The notes: generated by a model from the letters alone, not told the origin. A stretch of DNA of 32,000 nucleotides from Candidatus Cloacimonadales bacterium (GCA_963667035.1 OY762964.1:2786097-2818096), one strand, 5' to 3'; numbered from the stretch's first letter, positions 12,449-20,491 are shown. Translations and numbers: made by a program.

Positions 12449-12477
12449 TTGCCACATAAAAGAGAATTGAATTTAAT
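12449..12477 (+). promoter_or_regulatory. Candidate sigma70-type promoter for the motor/export operon
   Basis: TTGCCA (12449..12454), a 17-nt spacer, then TTTAAT (12472..12477), about 23 nt upstream of ATG 12500. It sits in the 125-bp divergent intergenic region. Confidence 0.3.
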
Positions 12478-12499
12478 CCAATTATCTTGGGAGGATTGG

Positions 12500-13879
12500 A
12501 TGATAAGGAAAACTGTTATTTACTTGTTGATTATCTCTGTGCTCTGTTGTGTCGTTGAGTTATATTCAGAAACAACAAGCTCTTTAGCAGAGTTAAAAGC
12601 TGAAACTGAACTTGCAAAACGCATTGAAGACCTAGTGAAACCATTTACTGAAAAAGTTATTGTTGGAGTTGATCTTGATTTAAGATATAATCTATTTGAG
12701 ACTAACACTTCAGATTTCAAGTTCGATCCCAATATGAGCCTACCCGGTTTACCGGTAGGTAAAACAGATAATAGAATAGTTGAGAATGATCTTGAAGATG
12801 TAGTACCAACTGAAATATTAAGAAAGAAAATTAGTATTAAAGTTCCATTAGATACTTCCAAAGAAGTAATCGAATTTCTCAATCAAGAAATACATAATAT
12901 TATTACAATAGATGAGAATAAAGGGGATATATTGCAGATAACCCCTGAATCTAATCTAACCAAGTATATCCGTTCAAAGAATAACAGGTTACAGACTTAC
13001 TTTTTTCTCACCTTAATTGCAGTTATGATTTTAATGCTGAATAATATACGTAGCGGTATGAGAATAATTGCCAAGTCAATGAGAAAAATCAAAATCACTA
13101 ACCTTGAAGTTCTAAATAAATCAAAAACACCGGAGATAATTAATAATAGTACTTCTGAACAAACTCATCCCAGAATTCCTCTTGAACCTATAAAAGTAAA
13201 AGTTCTTCAAGATGAAGAAGAAGATTTGATGCCAACGAGATTCGATTTCTTAGAAGATCTTTCGGATGCTAACTTGTTAGAAGTTTTAAGAGAAGAGAAT
13301 CCCGAGGATATAGCATTTATTGTTTCTCAAATCTCTCCAGAAAAAGCAGGAGCTGTTTTCCAGAATCTAAAAGAGAATAAAGAACAAGTAATAAATGCAA
13401 TGTTAGAAAATCAATCAAAGCTGAAGCTAGACCTTAAAATCCTAGTTGTTAATTTATATAATAAGTATCTGGAAATTATGGAGAAAGAAGCAATTCAGTT
13501 AGAGGGTGTAGGTCTACTCGCAAAAATAATAAACAGTTCGGATTATGAGAGTTCTAACATTCTATATGAATCCATAAATAATCTTGATAAAGATAAGGCT
13601 AAAGAGATTGCGAAAAAGATATTCTTATTGGATGATGTCTTATTGCTGTCTAATATTCAAATTGAACAGATTTCTCTTGAATTTACTCATCTAGAGTTAG
13701 TTAAATTCTTAGCCTGTGTGAATACAAGAATAAAGAACAAATTCTTCTCTCAACTTTCGGAAAGAGCAACAATGATTTTTAAAGAGGACATAGAATCTCT
13801 AGGTAAGCTTTCGGAAGGAGAAAAGAGAGTTATATTGAATCACTCATTGAGAAAAATTCGTAATATTCTAAATTTCTAA
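12500..13879 (+). CDS. Membrane-anchored FliF(RBM3)-like / FliG(middle+C-terminal)-like fusion protein (putative rotor subunit)
   Basis: The track starts it at TTG 12449. I prefer ATG 12500, preceded by GGGAGG. Topology: TM1 (TVIYLLIISVLCCVV), periplasmic aa ~25-155, TM2 (TYFFLTLIAVMILML) followed by a basic cluster. Periplasmic motifs ELAKRIEDLVKPFTEKVIVGVDLDLRYN and KKISIKVPLDTSKEVIEFLNQEIHNIITIDENKGDILQITP parallel FliF RBM3 (E.RI...IE.il.P.vG...V.a.V.a.LDf and RLSVAVVV...l..ie.l...a.G....RGD.l.V). The cytoplasmic region (aa ~247-459) aligns by eye with FliG: FDFLEDLSDANLLEVLREENPEDIAFIVSQISPEKAGAVFQNL; EGVGLLAKIIN; KIFLLDDVLLLSNIQIEQI; FFSQLSERATMIFKEDIESLG. Confidence 0.7.
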   Translation: MIRKTVIYLLIISVLCCVVELYSETTSSLAELKAETELAKRIEDLVKPFTEKVIVGVDLDLRYNLFETNTSDFKFDPNMSLPGLPVGKTDNRIVENDLEDVVPTEILRKKISIKVPLDTSKEVIEFLNQEIHNIITIDENKGDILQITPESNLTKYIRSKNNRLQTYFFLTLIAVMILMLNNIRSGMRIIAKSMRKIKITNLEVLNKSKTPEIINNSTSEQTHPRIPLEPIKVKVLQDEEEDLMPTRFDFLEDLSDANLLEVLREENPEDIAFIVSQISPEKAGAVFQNLKENKEQVINAMLENQSKLKLDLKILVVNLYNKYLEIMEKEAIQLEGVGLLAKIINSSDYESSNILYESINNLDKDKAKEIAKKIFLLDDVLLLSNIQIEQISLEFTHLELVKFLACVNTRIKNKFFSQLSERATMIFKEDIESLGKLSEGEKRVILNHSLRKIRNILNF

Positions 13880-13889
13880 AAGGTTTTTT

Positions 13890-18679: not shown

Positions 18680-19761
18680 TGAAGATAAAAAAAGATAGAA
18701 TTAAGCGTAAGCATATATATGCTATAACATATCTTTTGATTATAATAGCTACAATCATTATACTTTTATTATTACCTAGGTCATGTAGCTATTCAGGTAC
18801 TATTTATGCCGGAGTCGGAGGATGTGTTTATGATCCCGGTGTATATCCTATGTACAAAGGTATGACTTTATACGAGTTGATTCGTAAAGCAGATGGTATG
18901 AAACCTAATGCTGACTTAGATCGCTTTAATCCGGATATGATTATTGAGCCATGGGAATCATATTGTATTCCCTGCAAAATAAAAAAAGACCCTCCTGTTA
19001 AACAAATTATTGCAGAAGTAGCTCCTTATGCCCCTAAACGAGAGCTTAATGATGTAGACCGCTTCACGATTATCTATGCAGGTTTACCAAGAACTTTTAT
19101 ACTTCTAGATGTTTATCCGAATTACGGACTCATATCAGCAACACATATTCCTTGGTTTACAGCAGTACATGATTTAGTCGGAAATGTAAAGACTCTCTAT
19201 GAAATGTATTTAATCGGAGGAACTGAAGCATTGGTAAGGTCAGTGTCTGATGTTACCCAGACAAATATTGACTACTACTTCGCTCAGGATAGACCTGCTT
19301 GGATTAAATTTATTGATTATCTTGGTGGAGTAAAAGTAGACATTCCGGTTGAATTTGCAAAGCAATACAGAGTAAATAGTGGTATTCATATAATTGATGG
19401 ATACACTTCTTGGTTCTATATTACCTTTATTTCCAAAGAAATGAGAAGAATAGATTATAAAACCGGCTCAATGAATAGAATCACTCGTCAAAAACTTTTT
19501 ATGGAAGAGCTATATGCCAAATTTAAGAATCTGGATTTCTTTAGAAGTAGTCAGATTGGAAAATCCATATTAACAGATGCTGAAACGAATCTCTCTGCAG
19601 CTCAAGCCATAGAACTATCAAACAAAGTCAGGAAGATGTCTTCAAACAATCTAAAGCTTTTCACTTATCCGGGCGTTATCATTAATTATAATGGAGAGAA
19701 CTATTGGGAAGTTAATCCTATCAGATATAAAAATAAAATCTTTAATGAGATAAATAATTGA
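18679..19761 (+). CDS. Membrane-anchored SLBB-like + LytR/CpsA/Psr (LCP)-like domain protein (LCP domain appears degenerate)
   Basis: The GTG start shares 1 nt with the upstream TAG. N-terminal TM. SLBB-like GVGGCVYDPGVYPMYKGMTLYELIRKADGMKPNADLDRFN. LCP-like NIDYYFAQDRPAWIKFIDYLGGVKVDIP, but the usual Arg/Asp-rich motifs are not evident. Confidence 0.5.
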   Translation: MKIKKDRIKRKHIYAITYLLIIIATIIILLLLPRSCSYSGTIYAGVGGCVYDPGVYPMYKGMTLYELIRKADGMKPNADLDRFNPDMIIEPWESYCIPCKIKKDPPVKQIIAEVAPYAPKRELNDVDRFTIIYAGLPRTFILLDVYPNYGLISATHIPWFTAVHDLVGNVKTLYEMYLIGGTEALVRSVSDVTQTNIDYYFAQDRPAWIKFIDYLGGVKVDIPVEFAKQYRVNSGIHIIDGYTSWFYITFISKEMRRIDYKTGSMNRITRQKLFMEELYAKFKNLDFFRSSQIGKSILTDAETNLSAAQAIELSNKVRKMSSNNLKLFTYPGVIINYNGENYWEVNPIRYKNKIFNEINN

Positions 19762-19768
19762 GGTATTC

Positions 19769-20491
19769 ATGCGTATTATTCTTGTTACTTTACTTTTTTT
19801 AACTACATTTTCGGTATTTGCCCAACAAACTTATATTCCCCGTATGGCAAAAGATGACTTTTTTAACGGTGAAACTGATCTATCTAACATACCTGATTCG
19901 CTATTGGTCAGTACAGAAGATGAATACATTCTTAGAAAAGGTGACAGAATATCAATTTATGTAATGGATCATTTAGAGTTCTCAAAGCCTCAAATAATGA
20001 TATTACCTGACGGAAGTATTGAGTATCCTTTGATAGGAACTCTGAGAGTTGCAGGACTTAACTCTGCTCAACTAAGGGCTATTATTGAAGAACGTTTACG
20101 TCCTTACGTGACTATACCCATTGTTACTATCTATATTGAAAAAATATTCGGAGAGAAACTCAATATAATTGGCTATGTTAATGGACCTGGAGAATATCAG
20201 CTTTACGAACCTATAAGAATCACTGATGCTATTGCAATGGCAAAAGGTATTATAAACATTAGAGAAGTTAAAACTATAAGAGTTATTCGTAAAGATGGAG
20301 ACGTGTTTAACGTAAGCCTTAAACATATATGGTTTAATGATGATGATGAGACAAACTACAGAGAAAATCTTCTTCTTAATCCGGGAGATACGCTTATTGT
20401 ACCTCCTCCTCGAAGATTTAACTGGAGAATGTATACTGCAATAATTGCAACTCTATCACTTATTCTTCAGATATATATAGCTACTAACTAA
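19769..20491 (+). CDS. Wza/GumB-like polysaccharide export protein (Poly_export + SLBB), short form
   Basis: Signal peptide MRIILVTLLFLTTFSVFAQQ. YILRKGDRISIYV..ILPDGSIEYPLIGTLRVAGLNSAQLRAIIEERL..PIVTIYI. SLBB-like NIIGYVNGPGEYQLYEPIRITDAIAMAKGI. C-terminal hydrophobic helix. Confidence 0.8.
   Translation: MRIILVTLLFLTTFSVFAQQTYIPRMAKDDFFNGETDLSNIPDSLLVSTEDEYILRKGDRISIYVMDHLEFSKPQIMILPDGSIEYPLIGTLRVAGLNSAQLRAIIEERLRPYVTIPIVTIYIEKIFGEKLNIIGYVNGPGEYQLYEPIRITDAIAMAKGIINIREVKTIRVIRKDGDVFNVSLKHIWFNDDDETNYRENLLLNPGDTLIVPPPRRFNWRMYTAIIATLSLILQIYIATN

Follow-up and report, generated by a model that had tools for sequence, protein, structure and literature searches.

Seven same-strand genes of an uncultured Cloacimonadales bacterium, within a 32 kb window (the whole stretch of DNA that was analysed), appear to be one arm of a conserved nine-gene module arranged around a non-flagellar, ion-driven rotor-stator. 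A preliminary description had treated the seven as the entire unit. The conserved unit is nine genes, and the divergent pair at 7713-12374 (-) and 6239-7702 (-), which had not been linked to the locus, belongs to it. With moderate confidence, we infer that the motor acts through a TPR domain on an outer-membrane carrier of an adhesin, in the fashion of SprF and SprB, and that polysaccharide export is a co-expressed accessory.

The seven genes occupy the plus strand and are followed by a convergent MATE gene 3′ of the seventh. Their junctions measure 10, -8, 8, -4, -1 and 7 nt, and the ATGA (-4) and TAGTG (-1) overlaps were confirmed directly in the window sequence. ORF calls, the sequence itself and Pfam/NCBIfam searches bear out the strand, junctions, domains and motifs first described. 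The initial ORF had been read as 12449-13879 from a TTG at 12449. This start has been moved to the ATG at 12500, where homologues begin and which follows a GGAGG Shine-Dalgarno sequence 6 nt upstream, and therefore the rotor protein is 459 aa in length; the coordinates of the remaining genes stand. The two arms diverge from a 125 bp intergenic region (12375..12499), in which the promoters of both are presumed to lie. Consensus promoter and terminator scans of the locus returned background levels and were uninformative. Profile searches (Pfam/NCBIfam) of the 32 kb window found no glycosyltransferase, Wzx, Wzy or exosortase gene, in agreement with the earlier observation that glycosyltransferase, polymerase and flippase are missing from the window and that the MATE gene is on the opposite strand. 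The same four, together with PEP-CTERM genes, were absent from both the window and the 20-kb homologous loci.

The first gene (12500..13879, +; Pfam FliG_C 1.9e-13, FliG_M 4.2e-7) encodes the rotor candidate, which consists of a signal peptide or first TM helix, a periplasmic domain, a second TM helix, a disordered linker of ~60 aa and the FliG middle and C-terminal domains. The FliG N-domain is absent from the protein; this FliF-binding domain would not be needed because the fusion is covalent. In the AF2 secondary structure the periplasmic domain follows an alpha-beta-beta-alpha-beta order, is homologous to FliF RBM3 and carries an invariant SLPGLPVGK loop. The model, built from an 11-sequence alignment, is weak (mean pLDDT 59.7), and Foldseek matched it to FliG MC (8e-7) and the FliF S-ring/RBM3 (1e-3 to 6e-3), with weaker matches to SpoIIIAG (E 0.19) and SctJ (E 0.26-0.29). 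The family profile searched against the PDB recovered FliG (1e-40) and FliF (9yh6, 3.3e-4; 8z5s, 6.8e-4), so that the domain previously termed RBM-like can be assigned to FliF RBM3 by both fold and profile. Residues R439, E446 and D447, the equivalents of E. coli FliG R281, D288 and D289, are invariant in the rotor alignment, which also contains an IFLxDD hinge (MFxF-like). TIGR00207 (fliG) scored 75.6 bits, under its cut-off of 226.7. These data strongly support a natural mini-FliF/FliG fusion, in which an RBM3-like ring-building domain and a TM helix are joined to FliG MC bearing the torque-helix charges.

Stator A (13890..14627, +; 245 aa; Pfam MotA_ExbB 6.8e-24) is PomA/MotP-like and falls within the flagellar clade. 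NCBIfam models for MotP (2e-43) and PomA (5e-42) both matched below cut-off, compared with 0.0085 for TolQ, and the best PDB match was PomA 8brd, aligned over its full length at 1.1e-32. Across 11 orthologues, the residues R88 (PomA R88, MotA R90), E94, D/E99, E100, P153 and P201 are either invariant or conserved. Stator B (14620..15276, +; 218 aa; Pfam MotB_plug and OmpA) overlaps motA by 8 nt. Its TM helix carries the channel Asp (D40, in YADMMTLL) and is accompanied by a plug and a peptidoglycan-binding domain of the OmpA type. NCBIfam MotD, MotB and MotS matched it at 1e-41 to 1e-34, under their cut-offs. The channel Asp, the two MotA prolines, the interface Arg and the peptidoglycan anchor are all in place, and the pair is firmly supported as a PomAB-type stator.

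The motor genes are succeeded by four genes for a putative polysaccharide-export set. The first (15285..16121, +; 278 aa; Pfam AAA_22 1.8e-13) encodes a cytoplasmic ExeA/GspA-like AAA_22 ATPase with Walker A GEIGTGKT and Walker B DEAQ, to which TIGR03015 (pepcterm_ATPase) aligns over the full length (3.4e-41) at 141 bits, below the cut-off of 324.5; its sole PDB match was the remote Cdc6. Next is a Wzc-like polysaccharide co-polymerase with a BY-kinase (16118..18679, +; 853 aa; Pfam Wzz and AAA_31), scoring 112.9 with TIGR01007 (BY-kinase; cut-off 108.05), in which two TM helices surround a periplasmic domain of ~355 aa, followed by a GEGKST Walker A and a C-terminal Tyr cluster (residues 758-775). 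The third (18679..19761, +; 360 aa) is a membrane-anchored protein with an N-terminal TM helix at 10-40 that resembles an SLBB + LCP (LytR-CpsA-Psr) glycopolymer phosphotransferase; Pfam LytR_cpsA_psr matched at 2e-13 (51.2, above the cut-off of 24.6) and SLBB at 23.5 bits, below the cut-off of 27. The last is a short Wza/OPX protein (19769..20491, +; 240 aa; OPX classes are defined in PMC9603273), comprising a signal peptide, Poly_export (4.1e-19; 69, cut-off 28), one SLBB (SLBB_2; 30.8, cut-off 27) and a C-terminal hydrophobic helix conserved in 11 orthologues, which may be a Wza_C-like outer-membrane helix.

On the minus strand, a giant surface protein (7713..12374, -; 1,553 aa) is encoded, with a signal peptide, FG-GAP repeats (1.2e-34), a Big_5 Ig-like domain (3.8e-16) and a T9SS type-B C-terminal domain (CHU_C, 2.4e-5, ~7716-8105). 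Its last 130 aa alone scored 31 bits with CHU_C, above the cut-off of 27, and the model matched 11/11 orthologous C-termini (best 1.7e-10). Ten nt downstream lies the gene for the outer-membrane carrier candidate (6239..7702, -; 487 aa; Pfam TPR_1/2/11, TraF_2, Toluene_X). Behind its signal peptide, this barrel-TPR protein has a FadL/PorV/PorP-SprF-like beta-barrel of 14 strands; ~50 aa of disordered linker and a long helix then lead to a C-terminal TPR, which contains a single invariant Cys. The CxC tail of SprF is absent. In the AF2 model (pLDDT 76.8) the barrel spans 59-324, the linker 332-384 and the helix and TPR 385-486, and Foldseek placed it closest to FadL (6e-12) and to PorV chains 8gl6_F and 6h3i_F (TMt 0.56-0.57). 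The NCBIfam PorV/PorQ family matched at 7.7e-8, under cut-off. The window's own barrel misses the PorP_SprF and PorV thresholds, which only orthologues and fold reach: of 19 full-length homologues, 5 matched PorP_SprF (best 2.6e-12), 4 PorV and 17 TraF_2. The presence of a TPR at the periplasmic end of such a barrel, encoded directly after a giant FG-GAP/Ig protein, amounts, with strong support, to the SprB/SprF gene arrangement. There is precedent for this: proteins with a type-B CTD are anchored by a cognate barrel of the PorP type (PMC9143113), and SprF is linked through its periplasmic C-tail to a track driven by a motor (PMC12635249).

The same seven genes, in the same order, were found in 8 further Cloacimonadales genomes at 40-78% amino acid identity with unrelated flanks. 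Including the divergent pair, the order and strand of all nine genes are kept in 9/9 genomes whilst the genes outside differ, and therefore the arrangement exceeds chance. Giant protein orthologues occur in all 9, 44-60% identical along their whole length, and the 8-nt motA/motB overlap is retained in each of the four colinear loci tabulated (the window, L004, L005 and L006). Moreover, in L029 and L032, two distant metagenome contigs, all nine families recur on a single strand, tightly packed and in another order. It had been proposed that the motor genes form a real unit with the ExeA-like, Wzc, LCP and Wza genes, an idea that would fall if motor and export genes never occurred together elsewhere. 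They do so in the nine colinear genomes and, rearranged, in L029 and L032, as a conserved and tightly coupled unit.

An exhaustive HMM search of 1.84 billion proteins with the rotor family returned, at E<=1e-30, 38 cluster representatives, of which ~30 are full length; canonical 330-345-aa FliGs appeared only from ~1e-21. There is thus strong support for the rotor-MotA-MotB cassette as a rare, wider family. All 15 sampled cassettes with readable neighbours have as a partner a TPR protein of the periplasmic or outer-membrane side, either YbgF-like or a barrel-TPR with an adhesin, and the barrel-TPR gene adjoins the rotor gene in >20 loci. In type A cassettes (L014, L016, L018, L020) a YbgF/CpoB-like TPR protein (7.8e-18, below the family cut-off) adjoins, with neither a Wzc/Wza set nor an adhesin. 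Type B cassettes have the barrel-TPR and the CHU_C-tailed giant protein, and three (L025, L026, L030) have only these two, without Wzc/Wza. Tandem duplication of the cassette occurs, each copy having its own TPR gene, and CTDs of the T9SS type are frequent in the vicinity of these loci. Only one subset of motor cassettes has the Wzc/LCP/Wza set alongside. A Wzc/Wza conduit coupled to the rotor-stator, as first suggested, is therefore not the general load of the motor, given the seven full-length cassettes named above that lack it.

Five known systems resemble parts of the locus. With the flagellar motor core (FliF MS-ring, FliG, MotAB/PomAB) it shares the FliF RBM3-like domain, FliG MC with its torque-helix Arg, acidic pair and hinge motif, a PomA-like stator of 4 TM helices with the conserved Arg and Pro, and a MotB with channel Asp, plug and OmpA anchor. 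However, here a single polypeptide combines FliF and FliG, with just one RBM and without FliG_N, the motor is partnered by TPR, barrel, adhesin and Wzc/Wza proteins, equivalog cut-offs are all missed, and FliM/N, export gate, rod, hook and filament genes were not found near the locus. The Bacteroidota gliding/T9SS chain (GldLM, GldKN(J), SprF, SprB) likewise has a type-B-CTD giant gene directly before a FadL/PorV/PorP-like barrel with a periplasmic C-terminal extension, a pair genetically tied to a MotAB-superfamily ion motor, and the lineage of the locus is in the FCB group. It differs in that the motor here pairs a FliG-type rotor with a stator of the flagellar clade and is not GldLM, there are no GldK/N/J-like genes in the locus, the carrier extension is a TPR with one invariant Cys rather than a CxC tail, and Wzc/LCP/Wza genes share the motor operon. 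The locus shares with Wzc/Wza (PCP-2a/OPX) export loci, among them the PEP-CTERM/XrtA-type EPS loci that carry the TIGR03015 ATPase, a BY-kinase co-polymerase bearing a Tyr cluster, together with an OPX protein and an ExeA-like ATPase, in the same order; yet no PEP-CTERM equivalog cut-off is reached, an LCP enzyme is inserted and the set is transcriptionally fused to the rotor-stator. Type A relatives recall Tol-Pal (TolQRA, TolB, Pal, YbgF/CpoB) in the operon linkage of a 5:2-type stator to a YbgF-like TPR protein and to an OmpA-like domain that binds peptidoglycan. In Myxococcus, which has the Agl-Glt/Nfs machinery, Agl-Nfs is a precedent for a motor that acts on a surface polysaccharide or coat and on adhesins. 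In contrast to Tol-Pal and Agl-Glt/Nfs, the stator is of the MotA/PomA clade rather than TolQ/ExbB/AglR, and the transducer is FliG-type and engaged at the cytoplasmic face rather than a TolA/TonB/GltG-type TM partner. The Zorya anti-phage system (ZorAB) is also a non-flagellar MotAB-superfamily pair, and MotB matches ZorB models at 1e-20 via shared MotB homology; however, ZorA is not matched, MotA (245 aa) is without the long ZorA tail and the locus has no ZorC/D/E-type genes. As the preliminary description anticipated, we found no published description of such a rotor-stator/adhesin/polysaccharide-export machine in the searchable literature.

Under the reading that we prefer, the fusion protein would form an inner-membrane ring turned by the stators, and the periplasmic face of this ring would engage the TPR, which could reach down to it by means of the flexible ~50-residue linker and the long helix. 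Force would thereby reach the outer-membrane carrier together with its adhesin on the surface, which would be moved or loaded, much as the GldLM-driven track of Bacteroidota does for SprF-SprB. The co-transcribed ATPase-Wzc-LCP-Wza set would export a polysaccharide, and perhaps attach it through the LCP enzyme; the product could be a slime, a capsule or a glycan anchor used with the machine. This set would be a lineage-specific accessory rather than a universal load. The type A cassettes, having no adhesin, imply that the core job of the motor may be more general, for instance Tol-Pal-like, and the translational coupling of the Cloacimonadales rotor-stator to ATPase/Wzc/LCP/Wza, and not to the adhesin arm, would fit polysaccharide export as a local load.

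That last point is the basis of an alternative which we consider unlikely, namely that the rotor-stator has a mechanical or energetic link to the Wzc/Wza conduit, by which it would drive, twist or gate the secretion of polymer or slime, with adhesin and barrel as accessories. All 9 genomes keep the genes from rotor to Wza strictly colinear, these genes are translationally coupled (-8 to +10 nt), and the export set is again found with the motor, rearranged, in L029 and L032. Wzc and FliF-like domain families both form rings, and since Wza keeps its putative outer-membrane helix, the conduit would need no barrel to be complete. Nevertheless, most sampled cassettes (the same seven) have no Wzc/Wza within 8-10 kb, known Wzc/Wza systems have no need of an ion-driven motor, and none of the loci contains a polymerase, flippase or glycosyltransferase. 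Somewhat unlikely, too, is that the cassette powers secretion or envelope upkeep rather than movement, a reading that overlaps with our own and differs mainly in output: acting via TPR proteins, a Tol-Pal/TonB-like or GldLM-like transducer would supply energy either for exporting the type-B-CTD giant protein or releasing it from a T9SS-type translocon, or for tethering and remodelling the outer membrane. It draws on the YbgF/CpoB-like partner of type A, the Pal-like OmpA domain of MotB and the frequency of T9SS-type CTDs near the loci; T9SS may be present in Cloacimonadota (PMC11285876), and release of T9SS substrates is an energy-requiring step that uses carrier barrels (PMC12635249). The stator clade (PomA 1e-32 versus TolQ 0.0085) argues against it, and a conserved FliG torque helix with a ring-building domain favours sustained ring rotation over a TolA/TonB-like lever.

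It is very improbable that the locus supplies a conventional flagellum encoded elsewhere with an additional FliG paralogue and an alternative set of stators, with EPS and adhesin co-regulated as a swim-or-stick switch. The stator is indeed nearest to PomA/MotP, and cross-talk between EPS and flagella exists, as in the EpsE clutch on FliG. Flagellar systems are present in 5/46 Cloacimonadota genomes and missing from the other 41/46 (bioRxiv 10.1101/2021.10.08.463351). However, the rotor is membrane-anchored, has no FliG_N and brings a FliF-like ring domain of its own, and so cannot take a place beneath a normal MS ring. When all ORFs of two true flagellar loci were compared with 537 kb from 35 related loci, only FliG, MotA, MotB and generic receiver and ABC domains were matched, all flagellar equivalog cut-offs (NCBIfam, rotor and stator) were missed by a wide margin, and the cassette is tandemly duplicated with a TPR gene in each copy. 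Accidental adjacency of unrelated genes or decaying remnants is scarcely credible: nothing but the absence of synthesis genes in the window speaks for it, functional residues are invariant and all reading frames are intact and overlapping. The synteny data, with the arrangement kept between unrelated flanks in 9 genomes and recurring in a second gene order, refute it; the adjacency is not accidental.

Lastly, L029 and L032 carry a REC-Hpt protein or hybrid histidine kinase and a 123-aa receiver directly upstream of the rotor gene. The position of this CheY-like receiver in distant relatives suggests that, in the adhesin-carrier machine that we favour, the motor may be under phospho-control.

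Seven + strand open reading frames were recovered by ORF calling, with junctions of 10, -8, 8, -4, -1 and 7 nt as listed in the preliminary description, and the ATGA and TAGTG overlaps can be read in the sequence itself. The start of the first gene had been placed at a TTG at 12449, which is wrong; the ATG at 12500, preceded by GGAGG, is the start of all homologues. All domains claimed for the seven products were found by Pfam and NCBIfam, namely FliG_M and FliG_C (the rotor, 12500-13879, +), MotA_ExbB, MotB_plug with OmpA, AAA_22, Wzz with BY-kinase, SLBB with LCP (here the SLBB is sub-threshold) and Poly_export with SLBB. 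The GEIGTGKT and DEAQ motifs, the Tyr cluster of Wzc and the expected transmembrane helices are also present. Scans for promoter and terminator consensus sequences returned counts equal to those of shuffled controls and are uninformative on transcript structure. Positions 20484-20491 are shared by the 3′ ends of the Wza gene and the convergent MATE gene, and with this 8-nt overlap neither strand has intergenic room for a terminator.

Alignment and structural modelling identify the rotor as a predicted natural FliF-FliG fusion. Both the alignment and the AF2 model give a signal peptide/TM1, a periplasmic domain, TM2, a disordered linker of ~60 residues and the FliG middle and C-terminal domains; the signal/TM, RBM-like domain, second TM helix and linker make up the N-terminal 260 aa. 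The periplasmic domain has an alpha-beta-beta-alpha-beta order, an invariant SLPGLPVGK loop and no invariant Cys. Only FliG_M (partial) and FliG_C are present, leaving the N, M, C set incomplete, and the score for TIGR00207 is 75.6 (cut-off 226.7). FliG_N, the domain that binds the FliF C-terminus, is absent from the rotor by Pfam, alignment and AF2, as would be expected if the FliF and FliG parts are covalently joined. Foldseek placed the cytoplasmic part on FliG MC structures (8e-7) and the periplasmic part on the FliF S-ring/RBM3 (1e-3 to 6e-3), with weaker matches to SpoIIIAG (E 0.19) and SctJ (E 0.26-0.29). With an AF2 model of no more than moderate confidence (pLDDT 59.7), the likeness to FliF was tested independently with a family profile. 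Searched against the PDB, the profile of 29 rotor sequences matched FliG at 1e-40 and one FliF entry at 3.3e-4 (profile positions 27-146), whilst a second FliF entry (6.8e-4) aligned profile positions 118-195 with FliF residues 418-500, which are the end of RBM3 and TM2. The torque-helix residues R439, E446 and D447, equivalent to R281, D288 and D289 of E. coli, are invariant, as is the IFLxDD hinge that corresponds to MFxF.

The stator is, on its sequence, of flagellar type. In the PDB, Vibrio PomA matches MotA from end to end (1.1e-32), and among NCBIfam models MotA scores 1e-43 for MotP and 1e-42 for PomA, with TolQ at only 0.0085. Residues R88 (PomA R88, MotA R90), E94, D/E99, E100, P153 and P201 are conserved in 11 orthologues. 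MotB contains a channel Asp (D40, within YADMMTLL), a plug and an OmpA peptidoglycan anchor. The charge set of flagellar motors is thus present throughout, in the torque helix of FliG_C, the charged residues and prolines of MotA and the channel Asp of MotB.

Among 5.8 billion proteins, just 11 relatives of the rotor are word-detectable, and wherever a carrier is named it is a Candidatus Cloacimonadales or Cloacimonadota MAG. The seven genes are found in unchanged order in 8 further genomes (rotor 40-68% identical), which bears out the seven-gene unit of the preliminary description. However, the conserved unit is larger, comprising nine genes: the same 8 genomes also contain the divergent pair, a ~1,555-aa FG-GAP and Big_5 protein (the giant protein, 7713-12374, -) and a ~490-aa barrel and TPR protein (6239-7702, -). 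Beyond these nine, neighbours vary from genome to genome. All nine families also occur on the distant metagenome contigs L029 and L032 (rotor ~28% identical), there on a single strand and rearranged as ATPase-Wzc-LCP-Wza-[phosphorelay]-[CheY-like receiver]-rotor-MotA-MotB-giant protein-barrel/TPR; their junctions range from -4 to +66 nt. The retention of nine families despite this change of gene order is strong evidence of functional linkage. The association of motor and export genes, recurring in the 8 genomes and both contigs, is therefore not accidental, and we regard chance adjacency as vanishingly improbable.

Several genes accompany the module in some genomes. In 7 of 9, a 921-922-aa protein is encoded on the same strand directly after Wza (L005:18296-21064; also L006-L011). 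It has a signal peptide, a C-terminal Phe and a beta-barrel-like ending, and finds no match in Pfam, NCBIfam or the PDB. It is missing from the window and from the related locus L004, where the convergent MATE gene takes its place; a 786-aa gene between Wza and the rotor in L029 was considered as its counterpart and rejected, being a hybrid histidine kinase. The stretch directly upstream of the rotor gene (L032:6807-7999 and L029:3077-5805) encodes a REC-Hpt protein in L032 and a PAS-HisKA-HATPase-REC-REC-Hpt hybrid kinase in L029, in both contigs together with a 123-aa single-domain CheY-like receiver. The presence of these receivers beside the rotor suggests taxis-like control. A large hybrid sensor kinase is found upstream of the barrel gene in the 7 more distant of the Cloacimonadales genomes. 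The window contains neither the kinase and receiver genes upstream of the rotor nor the hybrid sensor kinase by the barrel gene.

The rotor-MotA-MotB cassette is a rare family. An exhaustive rotor HMM search of 1.84 billion cluster representatives gave 38 matches at E<=1e-30, ~30 of them full length and the rest fragments or the FliG part only, together with some two-stretch relatives of 500-520 aa; canonical FliGs of 330-345 aa first appeared at about 1e-21. For the metagenome scan an 11-sequence alignment served as query, the 29-sequence alignment being too diverse. Second-tier MotA proteins of 245 aa (35-43% identity) adjoin full-length rotor homologues that are 24-29% identical across their whole length. 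The cassettes occur in three arrangements. Type A (L014, L016, L018, L020) consists of rotor-MotA-MotB and a ~375-aa periplasmic TPR protein resembling YbgF/CpoB (7.8e-18, sub-threshold). In type B (L025, L026, L030 and many shorter contigs) a CHU_C-tailed giant protein precedes barrel/TPR, rotor, MotA and MotB, and Wzc/Wza are missing from the flanks (8-10 kb downstream). Type C, in the window, the 8 genomes, L029 and L032, is type B plus ATPase-Wzc-LCP-Wza. A TPR domain is the partner in all 15 of the 15 cassettes with readable neighbours. The polysaccharide set is an add-on to the motor cassette, strictly kept and translationally coupled within its clade. Contig L014 contains a tandem of two complete rotor-MotA-MotB-TPR cassettes (8563-17049), with MotA copies 39% and 35% identical to that of the window, and several such motors are thus possible in one genome. 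The HMM search also recovered other non-canonical proteins of 600-996 aa with a C-terminal FliG_MC-like region (P0170, P0173, P0177, P0188, P0225, P0233, P0276), scoring equal to or above canonical FliG. There may be a broader, so far unexplored range of proteins in which FliG domains are joined to other large N-terminal regions.

From domain matches and modelling, the giant protein resembles an adhesin and the barrel its carrier. CHU_C, the T9SS type-B CTD, is recognised in the last 130 aa of the giant protein in 11/11 orthologues (best 1.7e-10), and the CTD of the window's copy, taken by itself, reaches 31 bits (cut-off 27). In the barrel-TPR model (pLDDT 76.8), a barrel of 14 strands is followed by ~50 residues of disordered linker, a long helix and the TPR. 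By fold, the barrel matches FadL (6e-12) and also PorV chains from T9SS complexes (TMt 0.56-0.57). PorP_SprF (PF11751) is detected in 5/19 barrel orthologues (best 2.6e-12) and PorV in 4/19; the window's own barrel stays sub-threshold, with no PF11751 match at E<=0.1 and NF033709 (PorV/PorQ) at 7.7e-8, below cut-off. No T9SS core gene (SprA/Sov translocon, GldKLMN/PorKLMN) was found in the window. SprF-type carriers bond to their track by periplasmic cysteines. They have a twin-Cys (CxC) periplasmic tail, whereas the window's barrel protein has no CxC and one invariant TPR Cys. In SprF this tail links the carrier to the motor-driven track (PMC12635249). The cysteine in question, C434 in the C-terminal TPR of the window's protein P0282 (about 6401-6403, -), is the sole one invariant in 19 homologues.

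Among the export gene products, the Wzc-like PCP-2a/BY-kinase protein scores 112.9 for TIGR01007, just over the cut-off of 108.05, and has both a Tyr cluster and Walker motifs; the OPX protein reaches 69 for Poly_export (cut-off 28). The ATPase aligns over its full length with the PEP-CTERM-associated TIGR03015 at 3.4e-41, far below cut-off, and none of the TIGR03015/03007/03018/03027 cut-offs is reached; a PDB sequence search with it gave only a remote Cdc6 match. As previously claimed, the 32-kb window has no glycosyltransferase, flippase or polymerase gene, and it has no exosortase gene either. In the homologous loci, the module and the conserved genes around it are free of EPS synthesis genes; in L003 a single fragment of a Glycos_transf_4 gene sits at the contig edge, ~9.6 kb upstream of the rotor gene. 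The MATE gene is of efflux type (2.5e-76), with only a weak Polysacc_synt match. With its C-terminal hydrophobic helix conserved, Wza can probably do without a separate porin, and this speaks against a polysaccharide pore formed by the barrel. The barrel-TPR protein as porin of a class-3 OPX system was set aside on this ground, because its fold is FadL/PorV/PorP-like and not PgaA/BcsC-like, and because the barrel accompanies the motor also at loci without Wza.

The system would belong among the ion-driven rotor-stator envelope machines. In the mechanism that we propose, for which belief and doubt are evenly balanced, the fusion protein would form an inner-membrane ring turned by peptidoglycan-anchored PomAB-like stators using ion flow. 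The S-ring-like periplasmic face of the ring would engage a TPR, either free or tethered to an outer-membrane barrel; at this locus the barrel, and the FG-GAP/Ig adhesin that it may hold, would receive the force, whilst the Wzc-LCP-Wza-ATPase line would supply slime, capsule or an LCP-attached glycan.

Other readings of the locus were weighed against this one. That the motor energises secretion or envelope upkeep is unlikely in our view: the type A partner resembles YbgF/CpoB, but Tol-Pal and ExbBD-TonB use a TolQ/ExbB-clade A subunit whereas MotA here is MotP/PomA-like, and no TolA/TonB-like transducer gene is found at the locus. Slightly less likely still is a motor for polysaccharide export, the export genes being coupled to the motor in type C and missing from the type B flanks. 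Despite its flagellar parts, the cassette is very unlikely to be a genuine flagellar accessory. All ORFs of two true flagellar loci were searched against 35 related loci (537 kb); neither these loci nor the window contain any other flagellar gene, be it for FliM/N, export, rod, hook or filament, and most Cloacimonadota genomes lack flagella (bioRxiv 10.1101/2021.10.08.463351). Zorya, in which ZorA has a long cytoplasmic tail and is joined by ZorC/D or ZorE/F/G, was rejected, as PADLOC gave only generic ZorB/MotB matches and none to ZorA or a Zorya accessory, and MotA is only 245 aa.

Every single domain of the proposed stator-driven ring and its partners is already known. Searches of the literature found no membrane-anchored FliG and no FliG/MotAB together with Wzc/Wza. 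Nor did the literature, including a recent MotAB survey (PMC12505986), yield a description of a FliF-FliG fusion, of a stand-alone rotor cassette with a flagellar-clade stator, or of a motor partnered with TPR, carrier-barrel and adhesin genes plus Wzc/LCP/Wza. Few ion-driven rotary machines are known, and a rotor-stator cassette that is conserved and stands alone, in a phylum mostly without flagella, would be an addition to them. To our knowledge, torque generation by FliG and MotAB is known from flagella only. We suggest, tentatively and with the greater weight on the side of doubt, that the self-contained fusion ring and PomAB-like stators, passing torque across the periplasm by TPR to outer-membrane carrier barrels, are a categorically new engine of surface motility or adhesion, independent of GldLM gliding. 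This would be the first non-flagellar machine with a FliG-type rotor, propelling or loading a giant integrin-like adhesin in Cloacimonadales whilst a dedicated Wzc/Wza line lays polysaccharide. The single-RBM fusion may also preserve a minimal or pre-flagellar state of the rotor, and would then inform on how the flagellar motor arose. If real, a natural FliF-FliG fusion would offer a minimal rotor for structural work and a testable coupling of a flagellar-type motor to outer-membrane carriers, surface adhesins and polysaccharide export, and would bear on the origin or re-use of flagellar parts. Cloacimonadota are abundant in anaerobic digesters, and the system would bear on how these uncultured bacteria attach, move or build their envelope.

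Other genes of the window lie outside the module. At one edge the window cuts through a CHASE2 sensor joined to an adenylate/guanylate cyclase domain (3-1535, -), and the neighbouring gene (2014-5328, -) encodes a polytopic membrane protein of 1,104 aa that matches DUF4901 (YcdB/YcdC) weakly; neither is kept beside the module in other genomes. On the far side lies a 577-aa AsmA-like protein (22062-23795, +), the C-terminal part of which weakly resembles Leptospira-type GspN (TIGR04411 1.2e-6, below cut-off), and an AsmA gene is also found near the type A cassette in L018. The radical-SAM (25148-26167, -) and DUF2207 membrane protein (26037-27713, -) ORFs, both mechanical calls, overlap by 131 nt, and the TTG start of the former is probably called too early. 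Finally, a secreted protein of >1,180 aa with PPC, MAM and several Ig-like/DUF1573 domains (28454-32000, +) runs past the window edge and is probably a further surface or T9SS-type cargo protein.
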